A DNA stretch of 64,000 nt. It comes from Verrucomicrobiaceae bacterium. GTDB lineage: Bacteria; Verrucomicrobiota; Verrucomicrobiia; Verrucomicrobiales; Verrucomicrobiaceae. Below are positions 5,033-61,504 of the stretch, piece by piece. Made by a program: the position numbers and the translations under genes. The first letter of the stretch is position 1; each line of letters begins with the position of its first letter. The notes under the pieces are model-generated. The model made no database searches. It worked only from the letters and a program-made list of their open reading frames with translations, and was not told the origin of the DNA. The stretch lies in NCBI GenBank assembly GCA_016713245.1, contig JADJPM010000001.1, positions 1,679,076 to 1,743,075 of the forward strand. Direction: 5' to 3'.

Positions 5033-6647
5033 ATGCACTCAACTGCCGTCTCCATTTTCAACGACGTCATCGGTCCCGTGATGCGTGGTCCGTCCAGCTC
5101 GCACTGCGCCGCCGCGCTGCGCATCGGCCGGCTGGCGCGGGATTTGATGGAGGGCGAAATCAGTGAGGTGCTCGTCGAGTTCGACCGCGCAGGCTCGCTG
5201 CCGACCACCCACGAGAGCCAAGGCAGCGACATGGGCCTCTTTGGCGGCCTCCTCGGCTGGGACGCCGATGACGAGCGTCTGCCAAACTCCGCGCAAGCTC
5301 TCGCCGATGCTGGCATCAAGCTCCGCATCGAAACCGTCGACGTCGGCGATCCGCATCCGAACACCTACCGCCTCACACTGAAGAACACGCGTGAAACGCA
5401 CACCCTCATCGCCATCTCGACCGGTGGCGGCATGATCGAAGTCATCGAGATCGACGGCGTGCCGCTGCACATGGACGGCGGGTATCACGAGACGTTGATT
5501 TGGGAAAGTGGCTGCGACTTTAGTCGCATTCAGGAATGATTCGGCTAAAGCCGAAACCACTTTCTCAGAAGACAAAGTCATCATCCACGAACTCGCTGAC
5601 AAACAGCTCACCCAAGTCAAAGCCGCCACTTTTGTCCCCTCCGTCCTTTTGGTCCCTTTAGGCCCTCTTTCGGTCAAAAAGCTTTCTCCCGTGCTTCCCG
5701 TCCCTTCCCGCAAAAACCTCCAGGTGCCCTTCACGAGCTGCGCCGACATGCTTGCCCACGACGGAGCCCAAAACACGCCTCTTTGGCAGCTCGCCATCGA
5801 GTATGAGCGTGCTCGCGGAAACTTCACCGAGGAGGAAGTCATCGCGAAGATGACCGATATCGTCCGCATCCTGCGCAAATCCATCGCCAGCGGCATCGCG
5901 GGCACGAGTTACGAAGATCGCGTGCTGCATCATCAAAGCGGGCGCTTTGCCGAAATGATGAAAGCGGGCCGTTTGCTCGATGGCGGAGCCTTGAACCGCA
6001 TCATCCTCTATGTCACCTCCATCATGGAAGTGAAGAGCAGCATGGGCGTCATCGTGGCCGCGCCGACAGCAGGGGCTTGTGCGGCGCTGCCAGGCGCGGT
6101 GATCGCGATGTCGGAGGAAATGGGCAAGGACGAGACCGAAATGGCCAAAGCGATGCTCGCTGCCGGATTGATCGGTGTTTTCATTGCCACGCGATGGACC
6201 TTTGCGGCGGAAGTGGGCGGTTGTCAGGCCGAAGGCGGTTCCGCAGCCTGCATGGCCGCCGCCGCGCTCGTCACACTCGCGGACGGCACACGGGATCAGG
6301 CCATCGCGGCGGCTTCGATGGCGTTTCAGAGCATGCTCGGCCTCATTTGCGATCCCATCGCGAATCGCGTCGAAGCGCCGTGCCTCGGCAAAAACGTCAT
6401 GGCAGCCTCGAACGCCCTTTCCTGCGCAAACATGGCCCTCGCCGGCTACGATCCGCTCATCCCGCTCGATGAAGTCATCGACGCCGCCAAAGCCGTCTCC
6501 GAACGCATGCCTCGCGAGCATCGCTGCACCTCCCTCGGCGGCCTCGCCGTCACCCCGACCTCCCTCGAAATCGAAAAACGCCAGCCGCGATCACGGCGTC
6601 AAAGTCATGCCCCGGCAGCAGACGCGGCTGCACATCGATCGCGATGA
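5033..6647 (+). CDS. sdaA: L-serine dehydratase (Fe-S type), beta and alpha domains fused; one frameshift near 5500, 3' end uncertain
   Basis: SIFNDVIGPVMRGPSSSHC (beta) and GVIVAAPTAGAC, AAEVGGCQAE, LGLICDPIANRVEAPC (alpha) motifs. Confidence 0.85.
5505..5563. repeat. REP-like inverted doublet inside the serine dehydratase interdomain linker
   Basis: AAAGTGGC-TGCGAC-TTTA-GTCGCA ... TTCGGC-TAAA-GCCGAA-ACCACTTT; same family as 12741-12802. Confidence 0.75.
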
Positions 6648-7305
6648 TCGACTCGTCCGGCGCACGGATGAAATTGCGATCATGCGTGTCCGCAAGCTGC
6701 ACGCCATCGCCGCGTTCCCACAGCATCAACGTGTCGTTGTAGGCAAAGCCAAGCGCATGCAGCAAGCCGTGGATTTCCTCCTCCGTCGGAATGAATCGCA
6801 CCGGATGCGGCTGGATGAAGGGCTGCGAGGTCACAATGCTCAGACCGCCCGGCCGCTTCCACATGCCCTCAAAGCGAACGTCATCACCGAAGATTCGATT
6901 GCTCAGCCGCAGCCTGCGCAAGTATCCCGCCGGCGTGTAGTAACCGAATTGCCCGAAACCGGCCTCGCCGGGGAAAGTGGACTTCCAAAACCTCGTGCCA
7001 CCACCAGCATGAAACACCTCATGCTCTCGCCCGGATTTTCCGAACGCACGGCTTGGGAGATCGCGCTCCTTCAGAGCACAGCCGCTGCTTTTTGCAAAGC
7101 TCGCGAGGGCTTCAAACTGGGCGGCGACTCGGGCTTCCCACTCGGCAACCGGATCCCGTGGCTGACCCACATTTGCCATTCGGCGGCTTGGTGGAGAAGG
7201 TCGATGTCCCGCTGCGAGAGCGGCTTGTTCTGCTTCTGCAAGGTCCATATCCGTTGCGCCTCCTCGAGGGGGATCGGTTGGGGGACGTCTGAGTTCATGG
7301 CGCAT
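6550..7305 (-). CDS. Standalone Ser/Thr/Tyr kinase of the polyvalent-protein type (Kinase-PolyVal-like); start uncertain
   Basis: SGREHEV, YLRRLRLSNRIFGDDVRFEG, IVTSQPFI, LADTHDRNFI and IIAID motifs typical of that kinase family. Confidence 0.65.
   Translation of the reverse strand: MRHELRRPPTDPPRGGATDMDLAEAEQAALAAGHRPSPPSRRMANVGQPRDPVAEWEARVAAQFEALASFAKSSGCALKERDLPSRAFGKSGREHEVFHAGGGTRFWKSTFPGEAGFGQFGYYTPAGYLRRLRLSNRIFGDDVRFEGMWKRPGGLSIVTSQPFIQPHPVRFIPTEEEIHGLLHALGFAYNDTLMLWERGDGVQLADTHDRNFIRAPDESIIAIDVQPRLLPGHDFDAVIAAGVFRFRGRSG
7071..7298 (-). CDS. Possible 75-aa protein overlapping the kinase 5' region in another frame
   Basis: MNSDVPQPIPLEEAQRIWTLQKQ..., helical-looking; ATG lies 5 nt after a TTGCCG-N17-CAAAAT promoter-like motif. 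Confidence 0.35.
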   Translation of the reverse strand: MNSDVPQPIPLEEAQRIWTLQKQNKPLSQRDIDLLHQAAEWQMWVSHGIRLPSGKPESPPSLKPSRALQKAAAVL

Positions 7306-7332
7306 TTTGCCCGACAGATTCCCGCCCGGCAA
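7304..7332 (-). promoter_or_regulatory. Candidate sigma70 promoter
   Basis: TTGCCG-17 nt-CAAAAT on the minus strand. Confidence 0.35.
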
Positions 7333-7516
7333 CCCCTTGTTTCATTCTGATTTCACTCACCCGACTGCTCATGCTCTTCGTCATCCGCATGATCAGCCGA
7401 GCCCGAATCCGCGAGGTTAATCGAACCACGAGAAGAAATCTGTTCAAAAACATCTTGCGTTTCGGCAACGACTTGTGAGCATCTATTCCCCTATGCATTT
7501 AGGGGCCGCCATCTTA

Positions 7517-7544
7517 CACAGCGCACAGCGCACAGCGCACAGCG
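7517..7544. repeat. Heptamer tandem repeat (CACAGCG)x4
   Basis: Four exact copies. Confidence 0.9.
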
Positions 7545-7590
7545 CGTGTAGCGGCTCGCGGACCCTCAAAGTGGGCGTTTTTCAAGGTTT

Positions 7591-7863
7591 TCAGGAGCTT
7601 CCCTCACGAAAAGGGACGATTCCCTCGCTCTCAGGGAGCTTTACCTCAGCGGGAGGGATTCGCGTCATGAGACGCGGGATTCATCCCCAACTCTCAGGGA
7701 ACGTTCCCTCGGCCCGAGGGAACGCTCCCTCACCGTTAGGGATTGTCACCTCAACCCGAGGGATTCCTCCCCACCTCCAGCAGGAACTTCCCTCGGCGTC
7801 AGGGATTCTTACCTTTTCTCCAGGGATGCATCCCTCAGCGCGGAAAGAGGCTCCCTTTTCCAA
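7591..7863. repeat. Array of 13 degenerate 21-bp units with palindromic core AGGGA-N4-TCCCT(C)
   Basis: Strict 21-bp period with no indels; e.g. agggacgattccctcgctctc, agggaacgttccctcggcccg, agggaacgctccctcaccgtt, agggatgcatccctcagcgcg. Confidence 0.9.
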
Positions 7864-7934
7864 ATCTCCTCTTCTCCCCCTCTCCCAGTCTTCTCGTCTG
7901 GCATATCACACTATCACCCGGAGGGCCGCCTGAC

Positions 7935-8738
7935 ATGCCCTGGGACCAAGGAAGCTGGGACAGCCAGTCCTGGGACTCTGATTCACTCAACTCCACATCC
8001 ACCACCAAGAAGAAAACGCCTATGACCCGCCAAGCCTATTACCCCGTCCGCATCGCCGATCAGATCCTCTGGTTGGAAAACCTCCGCAACAAGTTCGCCG
8101 GGCACGCCCCCACGCTCGGCATCTCCACCGCCAAGTGCGAGGCCGCCATCGCCGATGCCCGCTGGCTCGTCTATACCCTCGGCTCCTGGCTGCCCGCCGT
8201 GCGGGATTGGCAAAAAGCCTGCACCGCCGCTGCCGAGCAGGCCCAGAGCGGCACCGGAGCCGCCGCGCTCGTGCTCCCCGTCTTCGTCCCACCCGCGCTG
8301 CCCGCCGCCGCCGGAGGTCAGCCCGCCGTCGTCGCCCGTCCCCCTGGAGCCCTCGACCGCATCTTCGATACCGTGGGCGACATCAAATCCAGCGACACCT
8401 ACACCGACGCCATCGGCCAAGACCTCGGCATTATCGGCGCAGGCAAGACCGCTCCTGACCTCGCCACCCTCCAGCCCGTGCTGAAAGTCAGCCTCGCAGG
8501 CAACAAAGTGGAACTCGACTGGAGCTGGCAGGGCAACAGCGCCTACCTCGACCAGTGCGAAATCCAAGTGGATCGCGGCAGCGGCTACCAAGTCCTCACC
8601 TTCGACACCACCCCCGGCTACACCGACAGCACCCCGTTCCCTGCCACGCCCACGAAATGGAAATACCGCGCCATCTACCGCGTGGACGACCAACAAGTCG
8701 GCCAATGGAGCGCAGAGGTGAGCATCACTGTTGGTTAA
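7935..8738 (+). CDS. Hypothetical protein: helical N-domain plus C-terminal FN3/Ig-like beta-sandwich (alternative start 8022)
   Basis: C-terminus VELDWSWQG..CEIQVDRG..YTDSTP..WKYRAIYRVDDQQVGQWSAEVSITV resembles FN3 folds; strongly biased codon usage. Confidence 0.8.
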   Translation: MPWDQGSWDSQSWDSDSLNSTSTTKKKTPMTRQAYYPVRIADQILWLENLRNKFAGHAPTLGISTAKCEAAIADARWLVYTLGSWLPAVRDWQKACTAAAEQAQSGTGAAALVLPVFVPPALPAAAGGQPAVVARPPGALDRIFDTVGDIKSSDTYTDAIGQDLGIIGAGKTAPDLATLQPVLKVSLAGNKVELDWSWQGNSAYLDQCEIQVDRGSGYQVLTFDTTPGYTDSTPFPATPTKWKYRAIYRVDDQQVGQWSAEVSITVG

Positions 8739-8790
8739 TTTCCACAACTCCGCCTTCATCATGCTCTCCTCCCTTCGTCACCTCATCCAC

Positions 8791-8907
8791 ATGGCCCTGC
8801 GCAAATGGAAGTGCTGCAAATGTGGCAGCCACCACGAGTTCACCCGCGACTCCTGCACCTGTGGTCACAAACGCTGTAGCGGCTGTGCAGCCAGTTATGG
8901 CTGGTGA
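8791..8907 (+). CDS. 38-aa Cys/His-rich microprotein (putative zinc finger); not in ORF track; alternative start 8761
   Basis: MALRKWKCCKCGSHHEFTRDSCTCGHKRCSGCAASYGW*, 7 Cys and 3 His. Confidence 0.65.
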   Translation: MALRKWKCCKCGSHHEFTRDSCTCGHKRCSGCAASYGW

Positions 8908-8948
8908 TTTCGTTAGCATCACGATCCAAACCCAAACAACCAACAACC

Positions 8949-47895: not shown

Positions 47896-47969
47896 CGCAC
47901 CTGGCAGGGATCGAACCTGCGACCGACGGATTAGAAATCCGCTGCTCTAGTCCACTGAGCTACAGGTGC
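47896..47969 (-). tRNA. tRNA-Arg (anticodon UCU), CCA not encoded
   Basis: GCACCTG acceptor stem, D-arm GCTCAGTGGACTAGAGC, anticodon arm GCGGA-TTTCTAA-TCCGT, T-loop GGTTCGATCC. Confidence 0.93.
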
Positions 47970-57427: not shown

Positions 57428-60400
57428 ATGAAAACCAAACATCATCGCCTGCTGCACCTCTGCCTTTTGATCGGCACCCTTTTACGTTGCCGCTTTGTTT
57501 CGAGAATCATCTTGAGCGGCTGTCTCGCTGCGCTCGGCTCGGCAGGGGGCACGCTACATTCTCAGGTGCCCAATCTCGTCAGCTACCAGGGCCGCGTCGC
57601 CGTCGGCACGGTGAATTTCGAAGGCACCGGCCAGTTCCGCTTCGCCCTGGTGAACACATCCGGCACCACCGTCTATTGGGGCAACGCGGCTGACACCACG
57701 CCCGCTGACGGCGTGCCGGATGCCGCCGTCTCCCTCACTGTGAGCAAGGGCCTCTACTCCGTGCTCCTCGGCGACACGAGCATCGCCAACATGGCCGCCA
57801 TCCCTGCAAGTGTATGGACCAATCCCGACGTGCGGCTCCGCGTTTGGTTCAACGACGGCGTGAACGGCAACCAGCTCCTCACCCCCGACCAGCGCCTCAC
57901 GCCCGTCGGCTATATCGCCGATGGCGCGGTTACATCCGCCAAACTGACCTCAGGCTCCGTGACGAGCACCCAGCTCGCCAGCGGCCTCACTCTTGGCGGC
58001 ACCACCAGCGGCACTTTCAGTGGCACTTTCAGTGGCAACGGGAATGCGCTCACCACCCTGAATGCCACCAGCCTCACCAGCGGCACCGTGGCCGATGCCC
58101 GGCTCTCGTCCAACGTGGCGCTTCGCAACAGCGCGAACACGTTCACGGGTGCCCTTTCCATGGGATCGAACAGCACCTTTATCGCGCCACACCGCCCCGG
58201 CAGCACGGGCAACGACAACAGTTTCATCGGCAACAACGCGGGCGGTTCCAACACCACGGGCGCATCGAACACCATCATGGGGAACACCAGCTTTGCGTAC
58301 AACACCACCGGCAGTTTCAATACCGGTGTCGGCCGCTACGCTCTCAACTTAAACATCGAGGGCCACGGCAATACTGCTGTGGGCATGAACGCGCTCCGTG
58401 CCACCACGAGCAGCAACAATACAGCGGTGGGCCGCGATGCGCTGATCAACAACACCACCGGCACTGGCAATATCGCGCTCGGCTATCTGGCAGGAAATGC
58501 GCTGACGACCGGCAGCAACAACATCCACATCGGAAACCTGGGGGTGGCTGGAGAAAGTGCCATCATCCGCATCGGCACGAGCCAGACGGATACATTCCTC
58601 ACCGGCATCATCCATGGCGACGGATCTGCGCTCACGGGTCTCAACGGCGCGAATCTGGCCGCAGGATCAGTCGCCAGCACACAACTGGCTGTGGGCGCTG
58701 TGCAGACGGCAGCCATCACGGATGGTGCCGTCACCGCCGCCAAGCTCGGGGCCGATGTCGGCCTCTGGTCCGCCGCTGGCGCGGATGTCTTCCGCAGCGC
58801 GGGAAATGTCGGCATCGGCACCGCCGCTCCTCTTGCGAAACTCGAAGTCTCCGACGGCACCGCAAGCCTTCAAATCCGCCCCGGCGAACTCAACGGCACC
58901 GTCTCCGCCGGTGACGTGACCTTGGAAATCTCCGGCAATCACACCCTCGGCATTTGGGACTCGCTCAAAGTCCACAGCAACCTCAACGTCGGAGGCGACT
59001 ACTACGGCCGCGGCCACATGTGGCTCCACGCCTTCGAGGGCGATGGAGTGAGCGGTACCGCTGTCCTCCAGGCCCGCGACACCAGCGGCACCTCCAGCAT
59101 CGGCCTCCAGCTCCGCACCCAATACACCGGCACCTGGCTGAACTCTCTGATGATCGCCCCGGACGGTAAAGTGGGCATCGGCACCAACGCACCCACGACC
59201 AGGCTCGAAGTGAGCGGCGACATCAAGGGCAGCGCCTTTATCGGCAGCGGGGCCGCGCTCACCGGCCTCCCGGGCGGCAACATCAATGCGGGCACGGTGG
59301 GAACCACCCAGCTCGCCGCCGCATCCGTCACCGCCGCCAAGCTCGGGACCGACGTGGGCCTTTGGAGTGTCAGCGGCGCGAATGTCTTCCGCAGCGCCGG
59401 CAACGTCGGCATCGGCACCAGTTCACCGGGGCGGCCACTGCAGGTTGATGGAACCTCCCCGGCGATGGTCATTGGCAACGAATTCATTCCAGGCAGGACC
59501 AGCCTGCTGATGGCAGTGACGGCGAATTCAGGAGGTCACTCCATCCTTCAGAGCACCAGCAGCGCGGGTGGCTCTTTTGGGGCGCTCAGCCTGCAGCCGA
59601 ATGGAGGTGATGTCGGCATCGGCACTGAAACACCCACGGCCAAGCTCGAAGTAAACGGCAGCATCAAAGGCACCTCATTCATCGGCAGCGGTGCAGGGCT
59701 CACCAACCTCAACGGGGCGAGCCTCACCGCAGGCAGCGTGAGCGGCACCCAGCTTGGGAGCAATCTCACCCTCGGCGGCATCACGACGGGCAGCTTCAGC
59801 GGCAACGGCGCGGGGCTGACAAACCTGCCCAATTCCGCCACCACCGGCACGGCGGCCAATACACCGAACACCCTCGTCCTGCGTGACGGCAGCGGAGACT
59901 TCTCCGCTCATTCCCTGTCCCTGAGCGGCAGCTTGAGCCTTCCCGCGACGACGGGCGGTGGTGACGGGGTGGTTTCCATCGGCGGTCAGCGTGTGCTCCA
60001 CACGCGCGGCTCCGGCAATGTCTTTATCGGCACGAACGCCGGCAACCTGACAATGACTGGCACCCATAACACAGCCAGCGGAAATAATGCGCTTGCCTTC
60101 AACACGACCGGCTACGCAAACATGGCCAGCGGAGAAAGTGCGCTTTTCTCCAACACGTCCGGCTTCTACAACACAGCCAACGGAAATAATGCGCTTTATT
60201 CAAACACGACCGGCTCCGGAAATACGGCCAGCGGACGTAGTGCGCTTTTCTCCAACACGACCGGCACCCACAACACGGCCAGCGGAACTAATGCGCTTGC
60301 CTTCAACACGACCGGCTCCGACAACACGGCCAGCGGACATAGTGCGCTTCGCTCCAACACGGAAGGCCACTTCAACACAGCCAGCGGAGGACAGGCGCTT

Positions 60401-61504
60401 TACTACAACACGACCGGCTCCGACAACACGGCCAGCGGAACTAATGCGCTTTTCTCCAACACGACCGGCTCCGACAACACGGCCATCGGAGAAGGTGCGC
60501 TTTACTACAACACGACCGGCTCCGGCAATATTGCGTTAGGCCAGGATGCCGGCGGCAACATCACAAACACCCACAACAACATCTGCATTGGCAATCTCGG
60601 TGTCACTGGCGACAGCGGGATCATCCGAATTGGCACGGATGGAACACACCAAAGAACCATCCTCGTCGGCAACGTGGGCATCGGCACGAACTCCCCCACG
60701 CAGGCGAAACTCGAGGTGAACGGTGGTGCCAGCACGACCGCCGGGCAGTTCGGCAACGTGCGCTACTTCAATCTTCAAATTGACGGCACCGTCAGCAACT
60801 GGGGCGGCGGACTCGTTTCCATCTATGCCTCCGACAACATCGTTGCCAGCGGCATCGGCCTCTTCTCCGATGCGCGGATCAAGAACATCACAGGCCGTTC
60901 CTCCTCGGTCACCGACCTCGAGACCCTACAAAAGATCGAAATCACCGATTACACCATGAAGGACACCGTCGCCAAAGGCACGGGCACCATCAAAAAAGTC
61001 ATCGCCCAGCAGGTCGAGAAAGCCTTCCCGCAGGCCGTCACCCGCGGCCAGGGCATCATCCCGGACATTTACCAAGCCGCCGCCGTGGAAAACGGCTGGG
61101 TCATGCTCGCCACCGATCTCCAGCCCGGCGACCGCGTGAAACTCCTCGGCGACAAGGACGAGGCGGTGCATGAAATCCTCGAAGTGGAGAAGGAGCGGTT
61201 CCGGCCCGCCGCGCTCCCCGCCGGTGGGAAGGTCTTCGTTTATGGGCGCGAGGTGAACGACCTGCGCCGTGTGGACTACGACGCCATCTCCATGCTCAAC
61301 GTCTCCGCCACCCAGGAACTGGCGAAGAAGCTCGCCGCGAAGGACGCGGAAATCGCCCGGCTCGCCGCGGAGAACGTGGAAATGAAGAGACAGCTCGTGG
61401 CGCAAGCCGAGCGGGACAAAGCCCTCGAAGCCCGCCTGGCCAGGCTGGAGCAAAACGTTCAGACCGCACGCGTGCAGACGGTGAAGGTGGCACTGAAGAA
61501 GTAA
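57428..61504 (+). CDS. Secreted tail-fibre-like beta-solenoid protein with peptidase S74 (intramolecular chaperone) domain
   Basis: Repeated GNVGIGT, NTAxGxxAL units; SDARIKN, GVIAQ-like KVIAQQV, VDYDAI; C-terminal coiled coil. Confidence 0.82.
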   Translation: MKTKHHRLLHLCLLIGTLLRCRFVSRIILSGCLAALGSAGGTLHSQVPNLVSYQGRVAVGTVNFEGTGQFRFALVNTSGTTVYWGNAADTTPADGVPDAAVSLTVSKGLYSVLLGDTSIANMAAIPASVWTNPDVRLRVWFNDGVNGNQLLTPDQRLTPVGYIADGAVTSAKLTSGSVTSTQLASGLTLGGTTSGTFSGTFSGNGNALTTLNATSLTSGTVADARLSSNVALRNSANTFTGALSMGSNSTFIAPHRPGSTGNDNSFIGNNAGGSNTTGASNTIMGNTSFAYNTTGSFNTGVGRYALNLNIEGHGNTAVGMNALRATTSSNNTAVGRDALINNTTGTGNIALGYLAGNALTTGSNNIHIGNLGVAGESAIIRIGTSQTDTFLTGIIHGDGSALTGLNGANLAAGSVASTQLAVGAVQTAAITDGAVTAAKLGADVGLWSAAGADVFRSAGNVGIGTAAPLAKLEVSDGTASLQIRPGELNGTVSAGDVTLEISGNHTLGIWDSLKVHSNLNVGGDYYGRGHMWLHAFEGDGVSGTAVLQARDTSGTSSIGLQLRTQYTGTWLNSLMIAPDGKVGIGTNAPTTRLEVSGDIKGSAFIGSGAALTGLPGGNINAGTVGTTQLAAASVTAAKLGTDVGLWSVSGANVFRSAGNVGIGTSSPGRPLQVDGTSPAMVIGNEFIPGRTSLLMAVTANSGGHSILQSTSSAGGSFGALSLQPNGGDVGIGTETPTAKLEVNGSIKGTSFIGSGAGLTNLNGASLTAGSVSGTQLGSNLTLGGITTGSFSGNGAGLTNLPNSATTGTAANTPNTLVLRDGSGDFSAHSLSLSGSLSLPATTGGGDGVVSIGGQRVLHTRGSGNVFIGTNAGNLTMTGTHNTASGNNALAFNTTGYANMASGESALFSNTSGFYNTANGNNALYSNTTGSGNTASGRSALFSNTTGTHNTASGTNALAFNTTGSDNTASGHSALRSNTEGHFNTASGGQALYYNTTGSDNTASGTNALFSNTTGSDNTAIGEGALYYNTTGSGNIALGQDAGGNITNTHNNICIGNLGVTGDSGIIRIGTDGTHQRTILVGNVGIGTNSPTQAKLEVNGGASTTAGQFGNVRYFNLQIDGTVSNWGGGLVSIYASDNIVASGIGLFSDARIKNITGRSSSVTDLETLQKIEITDYTMKDTVAKGTGTIKKVIAQQVEKAFPQAVTRGQGIIPDIYQAAAVENGWVMLATDLQPGDRVKLLGDKDEAVHEILEVEKERFRPAALPAGGKVFVYGREVNDLRRVDYDAISMLNVSATQELAKKLAAKDAEIARLAAENVEMKRQLVAQAERDKALEARLARLEQNVQTARVQTVKVALKK
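60068..60526 (+). repeat. Nine 51-bp coding tandem repeats (17 aa NTASGxxALxxNTTGxx)
   Basis: Direct reading of the DNA and protein period. Confidence 0.9.

Follow-up and report, generated by a model that had tools for sequence, protein, structure and literature searches.

A 21-bp-period array of palindromic units upstream of an uncharacterised multi-copy gene family of Verrucomicrobiota

The DNA analysed here, referred to as the window, is a 64,000-bp stretch of a Verrucomicrobiaceae bacterium (assembly GCA_016713245.1, contig JADJPM010000001.1, forward-strand positions 1,679,076 to 1,743,075), and its subject is an array of short palindromic units lying directly 5' of an uncharacterised gene with an FN3 domain (Table 1). 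Laid out in 21-bp steps from 7591, the array forms 13 contiguous units in a single register with zero indels, as an earlier note made from the sequence alone had described it. GGGA or AGGGA occupies unit positions 1-5 in 10 of the 13 units, and TCCC, TACC or CACC occupies positions 10-14 in most of them. The motif AGGGA-N4-TCCCT has four copies in the window (7612, 7696, 7717 and 7822), all in the array and in register. The two perfect palindromes singled out in the note, 7696-7709 (AGGGAACGTTCCCT) and 7822-7835 (AGGGATGCATCCCT), are indeed palindromic over 14 bp, and the distance from the array end at 7863 to the ATG at 7935, given there as about 70 bp, measures 71 bp. Exact GGGA-N4-TCCC occurs seven times in the window, six of them inside the 273-bp array; the count expected for the whole window is 1.15 +/- 1.05, and none of 100 dinucleotide shuffles reaches seven.

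Table 1. Features of the array locus and its surroundings in the window.
Feature	Coordinates	Strand	Description
Divergent upstream gene	6550..7332	-	Kinase-PolyVal domain PF18762, E 3e-10
Open reading frame through simple repeat and array	7475..7933	+	Gene frame +2; TGA stop at 7931-7933, 1 nt before the ATG
Simple repeat	7517..7545	+	(CACAGCG) x 4.1; 45 bp 5' of the array; Tandem Repeats Finder
Array	7591..7863	+	13 x 21 bp; unit is a dyad (A)GGGA-N4-TCCC(T) plus a variable spacer of ~7 bp
Array-to-ATG spacer	7864..7934	+	Rich in pyrimidines, poor in purines
FN3 gene	7935..8738	+	267 aa; uncharacterised, multi-copy Verrucomicrobiota family
Internal ATG (Met30)	8022..8024	+	Invariant across the family; start called there in most representatives
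Zn-ribbon-like open reading frame	8791..8907		38-48 aa; inside the insertion
Transmembrane/low-complexity protein	9602..10459		Inside the insertion
P-loop ATPase	10513..11757		Weak AAA_22 and BrxC/BrxD similarity; inside the insertion
Membrane protein	11576..12310		Inside the insertion

Since the units are just ~55-70% alike outside the arms, Tandem Repeats Finder calls no more than the best 3.2 of them (7696-7763). Rfam gives no family match in the array region, where no tRNA was found either; its sole match in the window is a tRNA at 47896-47969. The spacer between array and gene is without a Shine-Dalgarno-like motif. An abundant wastewater strain carries two changes, 7699 G>T and 7706 C>A, at both partners of one arm pair, turning AGGGA..TCCCT into AGGTA..TACCT. 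The array is confirmed as a conserved non-coding element, neither a chance occurrence nor a coding repeat.

The gene product was modelled with AlphaFold2 from 94 relatives (pLDDT, the predicted local distance difference test, 87.6). The predicted layout consists of a disordered, W/D-rich N-terminus (residues 1-38), a helical hairpin (40-105), two short helices and an FN3 domain (~180-267). Sequence searches of Pfam, PHROGs, NCBIfam, PADLOC and PDB yielded no match for the protein beyond weak PHROGs hits, and structure searches with the model found neighbours for the FN3 domain only. The family is large: one search gave 729 clusters at 90% identity, and exhaustive profile searching (E<=1e-3) found 2,140 representatives at 50% identity. 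Judged by record titles, every named member and almost every genome record is a Verrucomicrobiota metagenome-assembled genome, and one of these genomes holds nine family loci. Zero family matches occur among 2.9 million viral contigs; with the weak PHROGs matches and the lack of a PADLOC match, this led to the rejection of a phage or plasmid origin. In locus L229 the W-rich N-terminal segment (FTFDDPNLRWSDPSYILEPGDPGYPS) is a separate small open reading frame (1336-1503), with its own 5' part frameshifted and a TAG ~37 nt before the core MKRQ start, and the N-terminal extension and the core are therefore separable. The family member of locus L081 has as its upstream gene a 1,143-aa Ser/Thr kinase beside an extracytoplasmic function (ECF) sigma factor.

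The array travels with this gene family. Eighty genomic loci were fetched, of which 69, the window included, have at least 250 bp of upstream sequence. A segment with 21- or 42-bp periodicity lies upstream of the gene in 63 of these 69, down to ~45% protein identity, which bears out the link to the downstream gene family inferred in the earlier note by the very homologue comparison it had proposed. The arrays comprise 4-24 units (median 12) and end 0-260 bp from the ATG (median 54 bp), with nine of 47 loci having the array end within 15 bp of the start codon. In 749 kb of locus sequence, 65 periodic segments lie within 1.1 kb 5' of the gene and five elsewhere; of the four of these five that were inspected, one consists of N only and the others are coding or simple repeats. 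Two paralogues in one genome are 83% identical over ~1.5 kb, made up of ~200 bp, the array, the gene and ~60 bp. All-against-all clustering of open reading frames over the 80 loci identifies the FN3 gene alone as conserved, with no neighbour gene; each locus stands by itself amid ordinary chromosomal genes, for instance those for ATP synthase, dnaN and aroA, and the small Zn-ribbon open reading frame 3' of the gene is found in the window and locus L005 only. Array and gene form a self-contained cassette of ~1.5 kb, with the order 7-8-bp repeat, about twelve 21-bp units, pyrimidine-rich spacer and gene.

Across the family, the period is conserved and the arms are conserved as pairs. The period is always 21 bp, and a 42-bp alternation of two unit types is common. 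Unit types include GGGA-N4-TCCC, CTGGAGG-N4-CCTCCAG, GGGG(T/C)GC(G/A)CCCC, GGGGGCGCCCCC, GGTGATGCATCACC, TCCCACACGTGGGA, CAGTGGACCGGTCCACTG and ATGACATGTCAT, and the arm pairs include GGGA/TCCC, GGAGG/CCTCC, GGGGG/CCCCC and GTGA/TCAC, among others. The arms CTGGAGG/CCTCCAG are common to about ten loci. Arms are stable inside clades and differ across clades and among paralogues in one genome, so that between loci the palindrome changes in sequence and retains its self-complementarity, a comparison that the earlier note had suggested. An inverted-repeat score of at least 6 for the unit consensus is reached by 32 of the 63 arrays, against 3.9 expected from shuffled units; this test replaced a column permutation, which is underpowered for G+C-rich units.

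Orthologous arrays point to the same conclusion. Each of the 13 units of the window array has one counterpart in L001 and one in L002. Identity at the four positions of GGGA is 0.93, 1.00, 0.70 and 0.87 and at TCCC 0.80-0.87, giving 0.70-1.00 for the arms overall, whereas centre and spacer positions reach 0.37-0.67. The window array differs from those of L001 and L002 by ~33% substitutions with 0-4 indel columns per 270 bp, compared with 21-65 indel columns in the 50-90-bp flanks of the same arrays. Because the arms are kept and indels are near-absent as centre and spacer drift, both arms and their spacing are under selection.

This selection does not act on a peptide. Substitutions in the array are spread evenly over the codon phases in most array comparisons (37/26/27, 33/31/25 and 38/31/31), compared with 23/24/102 in the gene. 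Among Gly codons, GGC makes up 0.31 in the open frame of the arrays versus 0.75 in the gene, and among Leu codons CTT makes up 0.25 versus 0.03. The arms are retained as GGG and CCC, without synonymous variants. A coding heptad repeat was rejected on these three grounds. The earlier note had placed the right-arm T at a third codon position of the plus-strand reading frame through the array, which is correct for the frame 7475-7933, and had argued from it for selection at the level of nucleic acid; the flat codon phases and the codon usage, unlike that of a gene, agree. The opposite outcome, a conserved 7-aa peptide with synonymous variation, was looked for as well, and the conserved feature proved to be the dyad.

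The same reading frame is kept open all the same. The frame at gene +2 is open in 56 of the 63 arrays, compared with 32 and 40 for the other two plus-strand frames, and in the 150 nt 5' of the arrays its stop codons are three-fold depleted (19, versus 61 and 33 in the other plus-strand frames and ~59 expected). The distance from dyad centre to ATG equals 1 mod 3 in 29 of 47 loci and is not fixed mod 21. In four loci a single nucleotide separates the stop from the ATG, the stop being TGA in the window, L001 and L005 and TAA in L002; in most loci the frame runs on into the gene for ~110 nt and is closed there simply by conserved codons of the gene. Upstream sequences in this frame share no start codon or N-terminal motif, their conceptual peptides do not look like proteins, and G+C content at third codon positions (GC3) is not raised. 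The frame is kept open though its peptide is not under selection, an unexplained regularity.

Upstream of the arrays, a second repeat often appears. Repeats of 7 or 8 bp lie 30-180 bp 5' of the arrays in ~20 loci, about a third, in up to 17 copies; examples besides that of the window are L010 5242-5345, L052 5063-5196 and L231 ~905-975. Their units include CACAGCG, CAACAGCG and CCGCGCAA, and further cases are (ACGGCACC)n in L229 and (GCGCCCCA)n in L231. Assembled contigs from all eight sequencing runs break at 7534-7545, within the window's repeat, which suggests that its copy number is polymorphic. Simple-sequence contingency loci include 7-bp repeats in the Haemophilus hmw promoters and 5-bp repeats in Neisseria opa. 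Like these, the present loci have a 7-8-bp tandem repeat in the 5' region, with a unit that is not a multiple of 3 and at which assemblies break. Unlike in these, the likeness is confined to the repeat 7517-7545 and does not extend to the 21-bp array, and copy-number switching is here only a candidate.

RNA containing the array is abundant. Across three RNA-derived libraries from wastewater (X1-X3), the assembler depth is 840-2,900 for the array and 430-1,700 for the gene, compared with 158-620 for the upstream kinase gene and 25-70 for the flanks; these data are assembled contigs without strand information, from libraries that also contain DNA. Four DNA libraries show a flat depth of 3-7 across the locus. 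A 1543-nt contig from a transcriptomic library covers 7421-8952. For L013, the RNA data consist of one weak run only. A general attenuator was rejected, since a terminator-like hairpin with a T-run between array and ATG is not enriched (7 of 43 loci on the sense strand versus 4 of 43 on the opposite strand). By eye, an A/T-rich motif, ATTTAC-N3-6-AAAAC, often stands behind the last unit (e.g. L062 5819-5850 and L040 5424-5455), and in many loci the 20-30 nt before the ATG are C/T-rich and often end in ACC-ATG, with no Shine-Dalgarno motif.

Whether the array works as DNA or as RNA was approached through the statistics of its palindromes. Many are continuous across the centre, leaving a loop of just 0-2 nt, as in GGGGATC/GATCCCC, AGGGATG/CATCCCT and GGGGGC/GCCCCC (the slash marks the centre), and central pairs are complementary in 44-50% of units. 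The G.U wobble asymmetry taken as a sign of RNA pairing was not seen (236 G/T versus 277 A/C mismatches). The two half-sites decay independently of each other (GG[GT]A, T[AC]CC), and G.A positions without compensation persist in orthologues. Several arrays consist of whole-unit palindromes of 9+3+9 bp, equivalent to alternately oriented half-sites every 10.5 bp. Relative to shuffles, the plus strand folds with z = -4.1 and the minus strand with z = -5.7; both fold well because any palindrome array would. These sequence statistics lean towards DNA, and the array is at the same time transcribed and strand-asymmetric: in 50 of 63 arrays the sense strand has more C than G, and ATG occurs 139 times compared with 219 for CAT.

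We tentatively favour a reading in which the array controls this gene as DNA, its dyads being helically phased sites to which a dimeric binder attaches cooperatively. Dyad sites, conserved half-sites and helical phasing, the features of an operator array, are all present. A putative dimeric, sequence-specific binder would recognise every unit as an operator-like dyad, and the strict 21-bp spacing, two helical turns, would place all sites on one face of the helix. Ten to twenty dimers could then assemble cooperatively into a single nucleoprotein filament that covers or adjoins the promoter and 5' region, and this filament would set the transcription of the very highly expressed gene at 7935-8738. 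The selected object would accordingly be duplex DNA, bound by a protein, with the binding regulating transcription. Arms that are stable within clades and differ between clades and paralogues fit a sequence-specific binder. Speculatively, that binder may be the gene's own product, the only gene that always accompanies the array, with arms that differ between paralogues.

Several results weigh against such operator-type control. The cassette encodes no known DNA-binding protein by Pfam, structure or neighbour clustering, and the product of 7935-8738 shows no recognisable DNA-binding fold in sequence and structure searches; control of this kind would also require a paralogue-specific binder. The promoter was not located, a sigma-70 consensus scan of 7250-9100 giving no promoter-like match, and an array ending within 15 bp of the ATG, as in the nine loci counted above, leaves no room for a promoter behind it. 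The arrays of L004, L016, L003 and L050 are direct repeats with a 21-bp period and no dyad. Array RNA is at least as deep as the coding region. This transcription, the missing promoter room, the strand asymmetry of base and ATG/CAT composition and the preferentially open frame are RNA-, strand- or translation-level constraints that a pure duplex site does not explain.

A bolder variant, which we regard as unlikely, makes the cassette a self-recognising module, in which the helical-hairpin/FN3 protein would read its own array, as DNA or as transcript, and polymerise along it. If true, Verrucomicrobia would hold up to nine or more mutually insulated array-protein pairs, and the cassette would exemplify, in hard-wired form, a much wider and so far undescribed class: 21-bp palindromic arrays beside unrelated genes in bacteria of 30-75% G+C.

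Two other explanations lie at the level of the transcript. A structured 5' leader RNA of ~500 nt, mostly array, might fold into tandem hairpins or inter-unit helices and stabilise the mRNA, govern access to the start without a Shine-Dalgarno motif, or present many copies of a site to an RNA-binding protein; we consider this main rival possible, if doubtful. The depth over the array (840-2,900, also given as 1,600-2,900), the 1543-nt transcriptomic contig, the nine loci without promoter room, the C>G skew and the depletion of ATG relative to CAT all speak for it, as do arm complementarity kept while arm sequence varies by locus, the double change at 7699 and 7706, which restores pairing, and the plus-strand folding score. 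However, there is no G.U bias, palindromes run into positions that cannot pair in a hairpin, G.A mismatches in 5-bp stems persist in orthologues, and the exact 21-nt period with almost no indels is not accounted for. Moreover, the minus strand folds better, some arrays have no dyad, and the read data have the limits given above, namely contigs without strand information and libraries that hold DNA as well. The open frame raises instead the idea of a translated leader, in which ribosomes would read gene +2 through the repeat and array and stop at the gene's start or shortly behind it, the translating itself and not its peptide would control the gene by termination-reinitiation or occlusion, and slippage of the 7-8-bp repeat would switch it on and off as phase variation. 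Such a mechanism is quite improbable. It would account for the open frames, the depleted upstream stops, the preferred distance of 1 mod 3, the stop, either TGA or TAA, 1 nt ahead of the ATG, and repeat units that are not multiples of 3 and at which contigs break. Against this stand the lack of a common start or N-terminal motif, the non-protein-like peptides, the absence of a third-position excess, of gene-like codon usage and of raised GC3, and a frame that mostly ends ~110 nt inside the gene owing to conserved codons of the gene; the loci are also phylogenetically related, so that the counts overstate independence, and the openness of the frame could come along with degenerate units lying 5' of the scored arrays.

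Three further explanations borrow from familiar repeat systems. A type III toxin-antitoxin-like pair, in which excess repeat RNA neutralises the downstream cognate protein and each paralogue has its private repeat, would fit the constant order of array and gene, the multi-copy family, array RNA at or above gene RNA, and repeats private to paralogues in one genome. It nevertheless has very little chance of being right: the protein is a helical hairpin plus FN3 and not an endoribonuclease of the ToxN/AbiQ type, terminator-like hairpins occur in only 7 of 43 loci, versus 4 of 43 on the opposite strand, PADLOC gives no match, the loci lie among housekeeping genes and not in defence islands, and the unit is 21 nt, whereas known systems have repeat units of 34-45 nt. 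A neutral minisatellite, a palindromic 21-bp unit that expands by slippage and is merely tolerated, is just as remote. The variable unit number (4-24) and the GGGA-N4-TCCC arrays of 21-bp period beside unrelated genes in at least 120 metagenome contigs would be expected of it, but a neutral satellite would vanish or shift its period, whereas the array is present in 63 of 69 loci down to ~45% protein identity, with unit number and order kept in orthologues, arms conserved, spacers drifting and indels excluded. The least credible candidate, with almost no weight in our assessment, is a centromere of plasmid or phage type, an iteron origin or a packaging site. The formal likeness to parC, sopC and iterons is clear, with tandem units about two turns apart directly 5' of a gene, and it had led the earlier note to suggest a centromere-, iteron- or packaging-like platform. 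That suggestion is not supported, as up to nine copies per genome sit on chromosomal contigs in a housekeeping setting (ATP synthase, dnaN, aroA), no conserved ParA/ParM, ParB/ParR, Rep or terminase gene lies nearby, and the family is absent from the 2.9 million viral contigs.

The surroundings of the cassette in the window are less constant. Positions 8741-12327 form a 3.6-kb insertion of lower G+C (0.50-0.55) that is missing from the closest relative, L001, and may be a small mobile or defence-like island. The earlier note had tied the proteins at 8791, 9602 and 10513 to the array; this link fell away, given the absence of the insertion from L001 and of any conserved neighbour over the 80 loci, and a conserved operon with these three open reading frames was rejected because clustering returns the FN3 gene alone. 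In other strains, seen in RNA and DNA runs, identity to the window ends at 6583/6584 and at 8995/8996 and is followed by unrelated sequence; the segment of kinase gene, array and FN3 gene therefore stands in different flanks per strain. Some contigs of other strains skip 8996-9180. Kinase-PolyVal domains, such as that of the divergent upstream gene, are typical of polyvalent proteins of phages and conjugative elements. The 3' end of this kinase gene overlaps the 3' end of a serine dehydratase gene (5508-6647) by ~100 bp. Far from the array, positions 60068-60528 are tandemly repeated with a period of 51/102 bp (9 and 4.5 copies), inside a 1,358-aa open reading frame (57428-61504); this is presumably a coding repeat of 17 aa.

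Arrays of the same unit also occur outside the family. When metagenome contigs were scanned for three GGGA-N4-TCCC motifs in a row, spaced 21 bp apart, at least 120 contigs matched. Eighty of these, fetched from among the matches listed, span 30-75% G+C and carry arrays mostly of 3-24 units, with one of 40. An FN3-family gene is present in two of the 80, one of them a 28%-identical relative with an array upstream. The genes adjoining the metagenome arrays are unrelated ones and include TPR, MBOAT, MFS, DUF4835 and RecF-like genes. In A+T-rich contigs the arrays are clearly non-coding. Of 27 gene starts adjacent to metagenome arrays, 10 are within 50 bp of the array end. The palindrome tends to extend past the scanned bases, with outer pairs 36-49% complementary. 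Viral contigs gave one match at a 21-bp period, one at 18 bp and 23 at 24 bp, too few to compare. The breadth of this class is a lead and not a result, the scan having covered the 21-bp period only. Examples from these contigs (L084-L163) are the arrays L141 4796-5644, L105 492-922 and L106 4188-4414. A subgroup has whole-unit palindromes, TTCGGGA-N4-TCCCGAA; the L141 array has inverted repeats on both sides, and its orientation flips midway.

The cassette would be an unusually clean natural case of a long phased palindrome array, with 10-24 sites and a period conserved in a family that exceeds 2,000 sequence clusters. The array belongs to a single uncharacterised gene, apparently one with very high expression in wastewater communities. 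To our knowledge, promoters, leaders and regulators of Verrucomicrobiota are almost unstudied, and the cassette offers an entry point to gene regulation in this phylum. Its fixed architecture, combined with arms that vary among paralogues, provides a ready series for studying how a protein or RNA binder shifts its specificity. If the gene's own product reads the array, it would represent a new DNA- or RNA-binding module. The arrays of the same unit beside unrelated genes elsewhere suggest that the element may be a general regulatory or structural device ignored by annotation pipelines.

Among the described systems tested, none explains the array, each failing at least one defining feature, and full-text searches of the literature returned no description of such arrays. 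CRISPR (clustered regularly interspaced short palindromic repeats) arrays have repeats of 23-50 bp and unique spacers of similar length. The present array was rightly set apart from them in the earlier note, since its whole period is 21 bp, with just 4+7 variable bases between the arms, and no cas genes accompany it: Pfam finds no Cas domains in the window neighbours, and no gene other than FN3 is conserved over the 80 loci. REP/BIME palindromes (repetitive extragenic palindromes and bacterial interspersed mosaic elements) occur as many dispersed copies, singly or in small clusters, mostly at the 3' ends of genes. They were rejected as a match because GGGA-N4-TCCC is found once outside the array in 64 kb and, in the related loci, periodic dyad arrays occur only 5' of the family gene. 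In ToxIN, a type III toxin-antitoxin system, 5.5 toxI repeats of 36 nt are followed by a terminator and toxN. The cassette resembles such systems in having a tandem array directly 5' of a single gene, repeat RNA in excess and a locus-specific repeat, and differs in protein fold, unit length and genomic context and in having no consistent terminator.

Other comparisons concern proteins that read repeated motifs. TRAP reads 11 spaced triplets in the trp leader, HutP acts in a comparable manner, and CsrB and RsmZ are multi-hairpin RNAs that serve as protein sponges. As in these systems, where an oligomeric protein reads the motifs, many spaced short motifs lie in transcribed RNA, and array RNA is abundant; unlike them, the array has 21-nt units, palindromes that vary by locus and no general terminator. 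We know of no TRAP-like repeat-reading binder in Verrucomicrobiota. On DNA, sopC of the F plasmid consists of 12 units of 43 bp, and SopB binds the 16-bp inverted repeat that every unit contains; the ori of phage lambda has palindromic iterons. The array shares with both a long tandem arrangement with one dyad-symmetric site per unit, but its period is 21 bp and not 43 or ~20-24, no partition or replication gene adjoins it, and its place is the 5' region of a chromosomal gene with high expression. An iteron origin also fits poorly, since there is no Rep gene and the contigs are chromosomal, up to 3.4 Mb long, with several copies per genome.

The parC centromere of type II partition, with 2 x 5 repeats of 11 bp in plasmid R1 and 4 x 20 bp in pSK41, is bound by ParR and doubles as the parMR operator. 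Unlike parC, the array has no ParM/ParR-type gene, and Pfam and the neighbourhoods of the 80 loci reveal no adjacent genes for a partition NTPase or a centromere-binding adaptor. It is also chromosomal and multi-copy, with 10-24 units that are true palindromes differing per paralogue, and the linked protein is a helical hairpin plus FN3. What it shares with partition centromeres is the tandem, phased repeats directly 5' of a gene; as in parC, helically phased repeats precede the gene or operon that they regulate or, for the 21-bp array, would regulate, and array and gene make up one portable cassette. The cooperative coating by many dimers that characterises parC is, for the 21-bp array, what we propose.

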